Assembly: GCA_963665775.2 (NCBI GenBank)
Contig: CAXXTF010000002.1
Location: 683,255-747,254, forward strand
Source: Dehalococcoidia bacterium
GTDB lineage: Bacteria > Chloroflexota > Dehalococcoidia > SM23-28-2 > RBG-16-64-32
Direction: 5' to 3'
Length of the DNA: 64,000 nt
Shown here one piece after another: positions 14,201 to 16,290 of the stretch; position 1 is the first letter of the stretch; each line of letters opens with the position of its first letter. A program made the position numbers and the translations under genes. Below the pieces are notes generated by a model. The model searched no databases. It had not been told where the DNA came from and saw only the letters and a program-made list of their open reading frames with translations.

Positions 14201-15541
14201 TCAGGAGCGCTCTCCCCTCAGGCGGAGCTCGATGGCGCGGGCGTGTCCGGTAAGCCCTTCCGCCCGCGCTATCACCGCCGCCGCCGGCCCGACTTGCCGC
14301 GCCGTCTCAGCGTCGAGTCCCACCACGCTGGTGACCTTAAGGAAGTCGTGCACACCGAGGGGCGAGGCGTAGGCGGCACCGCCGCCCGTAGGCATCGCGT
14401 GGCTGGGGCCCGCCGTGTAGTCCCCGATGGACTCCACCGCCGCCGCCCCCAGGAAAACGCAGCCCGCGTTCCGGACGTCCTTCAGAAGCCTCTCCGCTCC
14501 CTCCACATGCAGACACAGATGCTCCGGCGCGAACTCGTTGGCGAGAGCGAGCGCCTCCTCCAGCGATCCCACGACCGCCACGCCACCGCGGGCCTCCATG
14601 CTGGCCCTGGCCACGGACGCCCTCTCCATCTCCTCAAGCTGCGCTTCCACCCTCTCAACCACCGCCCTGGACAACCTTTCAGAAGTGGTGATGAGTATCG
14701 CCGTCGCCAGCTCGTCGTGTTCCGCGCCGGCCAGCAGGTCCGCCGCCACCAGCGACGGGTCGGCCTCCGCATCCGCTACCACCAGCGTCTCCGAGGGCCC
14801 GAACAGCCCGTCGATCCCTACTTCGCCGTACAGCCTCTTTTTCGCCAGCGTCACGAATATTCCGCCGGGGCCGCAGATCTTGTCCACCCGCGGAACCGTC
14901 TCCGTGCCGTAGGCGATCGCCGCGACCCCCTGGACGCCGCCCGCCCGGAACACTCGGTCGACCCCGGCGATATCGGCGGCCACCAGCTTGACCGAGGCCA
15001 CGCTGGCGTCCTCCAGAGCCGGCGTGACCATAATGATCTCCGCCACTCCGGCCACGCGCGCTGGTACGGCCGTCATCAGCACCGTCGAGGGCAAAGCGAC
15101 CCTGGTGCCGGGGACGTACAGGCCCACCCGCTGCAACGGTCGGACGGTCTGGCCGATTCCGCCTTCATCGAAGCTACGGAGGGAGTGCTCCAATTGCCGC
15201 TCGTGAAAGAGCCGAATGCGCTCCGCCGCCTCCCGCAGGGCGGCCACCAATGAGGCGTCCACACCAGCGTACGCGGCCTCAATCTCCTGTCGCGAGACCT
15301 CGAGGGAGAGGGACGGACCCCCGTGGACGCCGTCCACATCCTCGTTGTAGCGCAGGACGGCCGCGTCCCCCTCTTCCTGGACATCCCGCAGGATCCGCTC
15401 GACGACGGCCTCGGCGTTCAGCTCCTCGCCGAACACCCGCCGTATCTCCTCCTGAACGGAGGCGGGCAGCTGCTGAGCCTCCAGGGGGAGCCGTCGCAGC
15501 ACCGTTTCGCGGGCCTCGGCAACCCCCCTGACTAGGCGCAC
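14201..15541 (-). CDS. hisD: Histidinol dehydrogenase
   Basis: 446 aa. KICGPGGIFV, AGPSE, LLAGAEHD, SIGDYTAGPSHAMPT. GTG start overlapping the upstream gene by 10 nt. Confidence 0.9.
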   Translation of the reverse strand: MRLVRGVAEARETVLRRLPLEAQQLPASVQEEIRRVFGEELNAEAVVERILRDVQEEGDAAVLRYNEDVDGVHGGPSLSLEVSRQEIEAAYAGVDASLVAALREAAERIRLFHERQLEHSLRSFDEGGIGQTVRPLQRVGLYVPGTRVALPSTVLMTAVPARVAGVAEIIMVTPALEDASVASVKLVAADIAGVDRVFRAGGVQGVAAIAYGTETVPRVDKICGPGGIFVTLAKKRLYGEVGIDGLFGPSETLVVADAEADPSLVAADLLAGAEHDELATAILITTSERLSRAVVERVEAQLEEMERASVARASMEARGGVAVVGSLEEALALANEFAPEHLCLHVEGAERLLKDVRNAGCVFLGAAAVESIGDYTAGPSHAMPTGGGAAYASPLGVHDFLKVTSVVGLDAETARQVGPAAAVIARAEGLTGHARAIELRLRGERS

Positions 15542-16290
15542 TCTAGATACTCCTTAACTGCCTCCAAGCCCAGCCGCCGAGACTCTTCCACAAAGCACTG
15601 AACTCGCTCCGGCGTTAGATACCGCATGGCCCGCTCCACCATGTCCGGCAGCGAGCGCAGGTACTCCTGCCACGCCTCCGACGTCTCGATGCCCGCCTCC
15701 CTCAAGTGTCGACCGGCCACGTACCGGAATCTCTCCCAGTCCGGCGGCTGATTGACCACGTCCAGGACCACCTCGCGCCAGCGACCAAGAGTATCGCCGT
15801 CGATGAAATCGATCTCCAGGGCCAGGTCGGAGCGGGCCACCTCCTCCAGGACATGGGCCACGACCGCCCGATCGGATCGCTTCTCCCGGTCGATGGAGAA
15901 CTGCACCAACCGGTCCATGATGTTGGCCTCCAGGTTACCATCAAGAGTGGACCCCTCGCCGAAGAAGGGGCGATAGATAGTGGTGATCCAGGTCTCGTCC
16001 ATGACCAGGTGCGTCAGATAACCGGCTATGAAGGCGGCTGTGGCTTCGTTCAGCGCTGCCGCTTGAGCAAGTCGGGGGTAACTCCGGAAGAGACTGTCCA
16101 CGCCGCTCTGCTCCTCCAAGCTGCCCAGGTCGAAGAAATGGGTTCGCTCCCTCTCCCAGCGCGTGATCACCCGGATGTCCGGCGCCGTCGAGCCCAGGTA
16201 CAGGTTGCCCCGCTCCCGGTCCAGCAGGCGGTGATGGAGGCCATCGGCCAGCTCCTTGGCCATGACCGTATGCAGCGTCAGTGGGGGCAT
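15532..16290 (-). CDS. Zinc-dependent phospholipase C-like metal hydrolase family protein, embedded in the his operon
   Basis: 252 aa. His/Asp pattern LHTVMA...LGSTAPD...THFFD...GYLTHLVMDETW, typical of the bacterial PF00882-type family (assigned from memory). GAGG RBS. Sits between hisG and hisD. Confidence 0.8.
   Translation of the reverse strand: MPPLTLHTVMAKELADGLHHRLLDRERGNLYLGSTAPDIRVITRWERERTHFFDLGSLEEQSGVDSLFRSYPRLAQAAALNEATAAFIAGYLTHLVMDETWITTIYRPFFGEGSTLDGNLEANIMDRLVQFSIDREKRSDRAVVAHVLEEVARSDLALEIDFIDGDTLGRWREVVLDVVNQPPDWERFRYVAGRHLREAGIETSEAWQEYLRSLPDMVERAMRYLTPERVQCFVEESRRLGLEAVKEYLECA

Follow-up and report, generated by a model that had tools for sequence, protein, structure and literature searches.

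A candidate histidinol-phosphate phosphatase of a fourth family in the histidine operon of a Dehalococcoidia bacterium

Which gene product removes the phosphate from L-histidinol phosphate in an organism whose histidine operon appears to encode none of the known enzymes for this step? The question is raised by a stretch of 64,000 nucleotides from the genome of a Dehalococcoidia bacterium (Chloroflexota; assembly GCA_963665775.2, contig CAXXTF010000002.1, positions 683,255 to 747,254), referred to here as the window, and by a gene within it, here called X, which lies between hisG and hisD. Based on sequence comparisons, the best available reading is that X is probably a metal-dependent histidinol-phosphate phosphatase (HolPase) of a fourth family, unrelated to those described. 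The comparative-genomic case for X is strong, whereas its assignment to a protein family is weak.

No other step of histidine synthesis, a pathway that is otherwise universal, is conserved as poorly as the HolPase reaction, and no unexplained gap is met more often when amino-acid biosynthesis is annotated. Three superfamilies of HolPases are counted in the literature, and about 32% of the histidine producers in KEGG have no gene assigned to it (PMC10804674); that count agrees with the HAD, PHP and IMPase types listed in the first-pass annotation of this DNA. Among 208 prototrophs, the HolPase was unassigned in 42 (20%; bioRxiv 10.1101/2024.10.14.618325), and the histidine pathway of Thermoflexus hugenholtzii, a Chloroflexota isolate, is short of EC 3.1.3.15 only, hisIE being present (PMC8129789). 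Such gaps lead to false calls of auxotrophy, notably for uncultured groups like the Dehalococcoidia and the SAR202-type Chloroflexota, for which metagenome-assembled genomes (MAGs) are the only source of metabolic information. If X is a HolPase, the gap would be closed for hundreds of species of a large, mostly uncultured lineage, and an independent evolutionary solution, a fourth family for a known reaction, would be added. Proteins now named ‘phospholipase C family protein’ or ‘hypothetical’ would also acquire a function, and a cytoplasmic member of the protein family of X would have a physiological role for the first time.

The histidine genes of the window and the unfilled step

The genes were identified with Pfam and NCBIfam and lie on the minus strand in the order hisZ-hisG-X-hisD-hisC-hisB. 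The features of the block are as follows:

18980..19008 (-), sigma-70-like promoter match just upstream of hisZ (TTGAAT, 17-nt spacer, TAGAAT and an upstream TG)
17723..18961 (-), hisZ, HisRS-like regulatory subunit of ATP phosphoribosyltransferase (PF13393, E = 3.1e-53; TIGR00443, E = 1.6e-57)
16312..17730 (-), hisG, 472 aa, GTG start at 17730, with two HisG stretches in Pfam/NCBIfam
15532..16290 (-), X, 252 aa, ATG start, proposed HolPase; cytoplasmic, predicted all-helical, with an invariant His/Asp set
14201..15541 (-), hisD, histidinol dehydrogenase, GTG start at 15541 (PF00815, E = 1.2e-146)
13083..14165 (-), hisC, histidinol-phosphate aminotransferase (TIGR01141, E = 3.1e-102, exceeding the cut-off), which makes the proposed substrate of X
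12497..13105 (-), hisB, imidazoleglycerol-phosphate dehydratase (IGPD) only (PF00475 over residues 38-181), with no HAD phosphatase domain

The block is tightly packed. The hisZ stop overlaps the hisG start by 8 nt, a gap of 21 nt separates the hisG stop from the X start, the X stop overlaps the hisD GTG start by 10 nt, and hisD and hisC are 35 nt apart. The overlap between hisC and hisB is 14 nt if hisB is read from the ATG at 13096 (199 aa) and 23 nt if it is read from the TTG at 13105 (202 aa). The motif GAGG is found 5 nt ahead of the start codon of X. A tight minus-strand his block with these junctions had been described in the first-pass annotation, as had X as a protein of 252 aa with its own GAGG ribosome-binding site and a stop overlapping the hisD GTG; the same values were obtained when the sequence was re-read. 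Its description of HisB as the dehydratase domain alone, of about 199 aa, agrees with Pfam and NCBIfam (199-202 aa), and the match of HisB to the model of the bifunctional enzyme (NF003937) covers model positions 160-355 only. The single promoter-like site it reported is present and is the sole match within 12300-19300 (about 7 kb); it is plausible by position, but statistically not distinguishable from chance, and it carries little weight because shuffled sequence yields 0.7 such sites.

Concerning the other genes of the pathway, tblastn searches of the window and of 89 loci from related genomes (10 kb were examined on each side) gave zero matches to hisF, hisH and hisIE, so the block comprises step 1 and the late steps 6, 7, 9 and 10, plus X. 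In the proposed sequence of reactions, HisB would provide imidazole-acetol phosphate, HisC would convert it to histidinol phosphate, X would dephosphorylate the latter and HisD would oxidise histidinol to histidine. A HolPase is the most economical assignment for X, because X is the only gene without a step and step 8 the only late step without a gene. The assignment is also favoured because HisB has no phosphatase domain and because X is coupled to HisD, the enzyme which uses the product.

Conservation of X and of its genomic context

X is a genuine gene and no chance open reading frame (ORF), as seen from its G+C content at third codon positions (GC3, 0.81), its homologues and a confident structural model. 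A word-indexed protein search returned 796 database homologues, the best 120 of which are all about 250 aa long and 57-93% identical to X; NCBI annotates homologues of X as ‘zinc dependent phospholipase C family protein’ or as ‘hypothetical protein’. In an exhaustive search of 1.84 billion cluster representatives with a hidden Markov model (HMM), the family was compact, with 504 clusters. Longer family proteins (P0213, P0140, P0126 and others, among 150 representatives) were considered as Rosetta-stone fusions and rejected, as they look like hisG read-through or frameshifted fragments. AlphaFold2 predicted X to be all-helical with zero beta strands, with a mean predicted local distance difference test score (pLDDT) of 87.5 from 32 sequences, and of 92.8, with a predicted TM-score (pTM) of 0.91, from 65 sequences.

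The distribution of X was examined with one genome per GTDB species. A stretch encoding a relative of X is found in 455 species, and among the best 80 of the 455 stretches every named organism is a Chloroflexota/Dehalococcoidia MAG. The loci which were compared with the His proteins of the window by tblastn are numbered L001-L089. In all 87 loci whose sequence continues past X (83 of L001-L085 together with L086-L089), the next gene is hisD; two contigs among L001-L085 end at X and are hence uninformative. The linkage spans 25-93% identity to X and both GC-rich and GC-poor lineages, and the GC-poor members, at 25-27% identity, retain the order hisZ-hisG-X-hisD-hisC-hisB. The end of X and the predicted beginning of hisD share 4-13 nt in 78 of 86 loci. 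hisC and hisB usually come after X-hisD, and HisB, in the window as in the loci with called genes, is IGPD-only (196-202 aa). Whether homologues of X recur at this place in related genomes, between hisG and hisD, had been put forward as a check on the assignment, and the outcome is strongly positive. Sequence divergence is faster in X than in the adjoining genes: identities are 41-69% for X and 54-71% for HisD when the same loci are compared.

hisG is present upstream of X throughout the related loci, in three architectures: a duplicated HisG of 466-472 aa with hisZ, a short HisG of 239 aa with hisZ, and a long HisG of about 292 aa with a HisG_C domain and without hisZ. The HisG of the window is of the first form; it consists of two tandem copies of the short-form catalytic domain with 33% identity to each other (E = 5e-31), an internal duplication which the first-pass annotation had not reported. 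The duplicated form is kept in the relatives L001-L005 (466-469 aa), and other X loci have an ordinary short or long HisG. The C-terminal copy (within 16312-17730) retains ‘EGTETGRTL’ and its N-terminal counterpart ‘AVADERVL’ looks degenerate; the protein may be a pseudo-dimeric ATP phosphoribosyltransferase which still pairs with HisZ.

Some further observations concern the neighbourhood of the operon. The genes at 18806-21317 (+) of the window, divergent from hisZ, encode an NfeD-like membrane protease and a Band-7/SPFH protein; the same pair lies upstream of hisZ in L001-L004. purS is found beyond hisB in the window (11124-11381) and likewise in L001, L086 and L087, so the wider his neighbourhood is syntenic. 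A short-chain dehydrogenase gene lies between hisD and hisC in L059 (10849-11679; adh_short_C2, E = 5e-64) and in L063 (8483-9286); the operon thus tolerates insertions at hisD/hisC, yet X stays with hisD. One locus, L079 (CAMDBZ010000168.1), belongs to a MAG labelled Thermoflexus hugenholtzii JAD2 and has the order hisG-X-hisD-hisC. In the gene table of the JAD2 isolate, hisG-hisC-hisB are contiguous and hisD is beside hisIE (PMC8129789). L079 was therefore not accepted as the isolate, and its taxonomic label is probably wrong; because the gene orders differ, the Thermoflexus paper serves as background and is no genome-level test for X.

The residues which are invariant in 65 his-linked members (25-93% identity) are M1, P2, H7, D38, R47, H51, H94, D98, E99, R107, D126, Q130 and D134. 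They include the key residues of the His/Asp motifs pointed out earlier (LHTVMA, GSTAPD and THFFD), with H7, D38, H51, H94, D98 and E99 invariant in all 65 homologues. Judged from sequence, the invariant set resembles the ligands of two or three metal ions together with arginines that would bind phosphate. The N-terminus of X (MPPLTLHT, with M1 and P2 invariant) has neither a hydrophobic signal segment nor an N-terminal Trp.

A paralogous branch of the family (P0234-like proteins) was retrieved from metagenomes with a five-sequence alignment. It has the residues P37, D38, R47, H51, G90, Y91, H94 and D98 in common with X and resembles it in length and in the predicted arrangement of helices, and the residues invariant across the whole family, this branch included, are P37, D38, R47, H51, H94 and D98. 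In contrast to X, the paralogues lack the D126/Q130/D134 stripe, and his genes were found in none of their 80 loci. A GalE-like NAD-dependent epimerase is encoded by the next gene in 19 paralogue loci, in some of which genes for GT4 glycosyltransferases follow at a greater distance downstream; loci of this branch are found among L094-L169, for example L113 (6001-7817) and L116 (1057-3999). This context suggests that the paralogues have a different role and may act on an envelope or sugar-related (sugar-phosphate) substrate. Because his linkage is confined to the subfamily which carries D126, Q130 and D134, one clade appears to have adapted a generic hydrolase scaffold to a task in histidine synthesis, and this is the picture expected of a substrate-specialised clade.

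Proposed function of X and the competing explanations

In the proposed mechanism, X would be a cytoplasmic metal-dependent phosphohydrolase which catalyses step 8 (L-histidinol phosphate + H2O -> L-histidinol + Pi), and it would be co-transcribed with the operon and translationally coupled to hisD. H7, D38, H51, H94 and D98, with E99, would hold two or three divalent cations for water activation and phosphate binding, and R47 and R107 may assist the latter. The clade-specific polar helix stripe D126, Q130 and D134 (i, i+4, i+8) may recognise the ammonium and imidazole groups of the substrate. We infer the substrate, the metal and the roles of these residues.

The first-pass annotation placed X in the PF00882 family of zinc-dependent phospholipases C (PLCs). 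X matches PF00882 with 25.6 bits (E = 1.3e-5; residues 7-98, model positions 2-93 of 167), below the gathering cut-off of 26.8 bits; the model was matched by all 32 close homologues tested (best E = 4.7e-8), and a precomputed PF00882 match is on record for many relatives in the databases. In Pfam, PF00882 belongs to the same clan as P1/S1 nuclease. The PLC family (Bacillus cereus PLC 1AH7, Listeria PlcB 8CQM and the N-domain of clostridial alpha-toxin) and X are both all-helical and about 250 aa long. In an alignment of PLCs, the zinc ligands W1, H14, D55, H69, H118, D122, H128, H142 and E146 are invariant, W1 nearly so. Five of the nine positions have ordered counterparts in X: H7, D38, H51, H94 and D98 correspond to H14, D55, H69, H118 and D122, with the order unchanged and spacings of 31/13/43/4 in X vs 41/14/49/4 in the PLCs. 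The sole local hhalign match between the two covers 8-9 residues and pairs THFFD with SHFYD (H51 with H69). The differences are also clear: PLCs are secreted and their mature N-terminal Trp binds zinc, whereas X is cytoplasmic and has neither a signal peptide nor that Trp; the PLC substrate is a phospholipid, whereas the one proposed for X is a small phosphomonoester. Searches of the PDB sequences with X alone and with a profile gave no relevant match and no PLC.

Several observations weigh against X being a PLC-related HolPase. Comparison of the X family with a 23-sequence PLC alignment in hhalign gave a probability of 0.1-0.3%, and with 1AH7 alone 0.4%; with HMMs of the X family, 1AH7 scored no higher than 500 shuffled controls. 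Foldseek returned nothing from the PDB at E <= 0.001 for either AlphaFold2 model. For the model with a pLDDT of 92.8, Listeria PlcB (8cqm_A) had by far the highest TM-score (0.41/0.45), which is non-significant at E = 4.5. No residues of X could be matched to the third PLC zinc site (H128, H142, E146); the invariant acidic residues E99, D126 and D134 are not alignable with it. The characterised PF00882 enzymes are lipid phosphodiesterases, with no monoesterases among them. The slot directly after hisG suits a phosphoribosyl-ATP (PR-ATP) pyrophosphatase equally well, and phosphatases are promiscuous: a distant housekeeping phosphatase could carry out step 8 and X do something else. The earlier family assignment is thus weak: the 25.6-bit match, the five ordered residues and the suggestive TM-score of Listeria PlcB speak for it, but the match is sub-threshold and confined to the N-terminal half, the profile comparisons gave no signal and the structural similarity is not significant. 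‘PLC-like’, as applied to X, stands for a remote, unproven relationship, and ‘Zn’ is an assumption. The wider claim that X is a zinc hydrolase replacing the known HolPases is partly supported: the his linkage in 87 of 87 loci and the lack of any match to HAD, PHP or IMPase models speak for the proposed replacement, and the PLC assignment is weaker than claimed.

That X is a true phospholipase-C-type lipid phosphodiesterase, whose place in the his operon is unrelated to its function, is very improbable. The PF00882 match, the NCBI naming and the TM-score of Listeria PlcB speak for it. However, X has the invariant N-terminus MPP in place of a signal peptide and an N-terminal Trp, profile-profile similarity to real PLCs is not detectable, counterparts exist for just five of the nine zinc-ligand positions, and neutral hitch-hiking cannot explain a position which none of the 87 loci has lost, even at 25% identity, together with a conserved overlap. 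The slot next to hisG leads to another enzymatic explanation, which we consider quite unlikely: X would replace HisE, the PR-ATP pyrophosphohydrolase, and hydrolyse the product of HisG. hisG is always directly upstream of X, cleavage of a phosphoanhydride is possible for a metal-dependent phosphoesterase, hisE or hisIE was not found in the window or in any 20-kb locus, and the PR-ATP pyrophosphatase is likewise a recurrent gap (19 of 208 prototrophs; bioRxiv 10.1101/2024.10.14.618325). Yet the tight coupling of X is with hisD (4-13 nt overlap), whereas 21 nt separate it from hisG in the window, and the rest of the operon consists of late-step genes. The step after HisE, encoded by hisI, is outside the block, HisE is usually fused to HisI, and the isolate Thermoflexus has a fused hisIE and misses the HolPase only. 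In addition, known HisE proteins are of the MazG type, with Glu-rich instead of His/Asp sites.

Conserved operon membership shows a functional linkage and leaves the reaction unspecified, so that X could also be an accessory protein outside the pathway, either in metabolite repair, with hydrolysis of a toxic or dead-end phosphorylated side product, or in the regulation of HisG or HisD through binding of a metal or of histidine. The faster divergence of X compared with HisD would fit such a role, but the invariant His/Asp/Arg constellation, maintained over 25-93% identity, looks catalytic. X is kept whatever the type of HisG and whether or not HisZ is present, which argues against a regulator specific to HisG/HisZ. 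We regard an accessory role as unlikely; it is also less economical, as a real enzymatic step of the block would remain unaccounted for. Returning to the HolPase reading in its broadest form, we lean slightly towards X being the founder of a fourth HolPase superfamily, an all-helical metallo-hydrolase at most remotely related to PLCs, which would supply step 8 across much of Chloroflexota (at least 455 GTDB species).

Other genes of the window and comparison with known phosphatases

The window also contains a complete rRNA operon at 44313-49916 (+), with 16S, tRNA-Ile(GAT), tRNA-Ala(TGC), 23S, tRNA-Met(CAT) and 5S; tRNA-Met(CAT) sits between 23S and 5S, and the operon is usable for phylogenetic placement. 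A DDE transposase gene at 6140-7465 (-) (PF13701 DDE_Tnp_1_4, E = 7e-59), between nadA/nadC and a pair of thiolase-like and DUF35-type genes, is probably an insertion sequence. At 51305-51875, upstream of a clpC-like gene at 52129, the DNA is tandemly repeated, with periods of 105 and 126 nt and 92-93% matches. The minus-strand ORFs over these repeats (50385-51798) have repetitive translations rich in Arg, Phe, Leu and Gly; they may be spurious, the true product being a plus-strand acidic repeat protein rich in Ala, Glu and Pro. Three ORFs of 239-252 aa with high GC3, at 38568-39287 (-), 24256-25014 (+) and 7984-8712 (-), have no Pfam match.

Concerning the known HolPases, X matches none of the HAD, PHP and IMPase models (Pfam returns PF00882 only and NCBIfam nothing). 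On the sequence and on the predicted structure, X is clearly no HAD, PHP or IMPase protein: a protein predicted without beta strands is incompatible with all three HolPase folds described in PMC10804674. PHP, HAD and IMPase domains were also not seen among the Pfam-scanned ORFs of the window or in the gene-called loci; part of the window ORFs were scanned, and the other large genes were assigned by visual inspection alone. In the literature library searched, no prior assignment was found which joins PF00882/PLC-like proteins and HolPase.

The PHP-type HolPases (HisJ/HisK; the Lactococcus lactis enzyme, K04486) catalyse the reaction proposed for X and, by published description, are metal-dependent stand-alone proteins with a multinuclear His/Asp site which are often his-linked; their fold, however, is a (beta/alpha)7 barrel (PMC10804674), unrelated to the all-helical X. 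The IMPase-like HisN proteins (Corynebacterium glutamicum Cg0910, Mycobacterium tuberculosis Rv3137 and plant HPP) occupy the slot proposed for X and are metal-dependent phosphomonoesterases, but X has no sequence match to them. The same pathway slot is filled by the HAD-type enzymes (Escherichia coli HisB-N, Pseudomonas aeruginosa paHisN, archaeal nmHisN Nmar_1556 and toHisN), which have a Rossmann-type fold and an Asp nucleophile, whereas X has neither a HAD match nor beta strands. The archaeal HolPase Nmar_1556 was itself found as an uncharacterised gene between his genes, and there the logic of operon embedding proved correct (PMC10804674).

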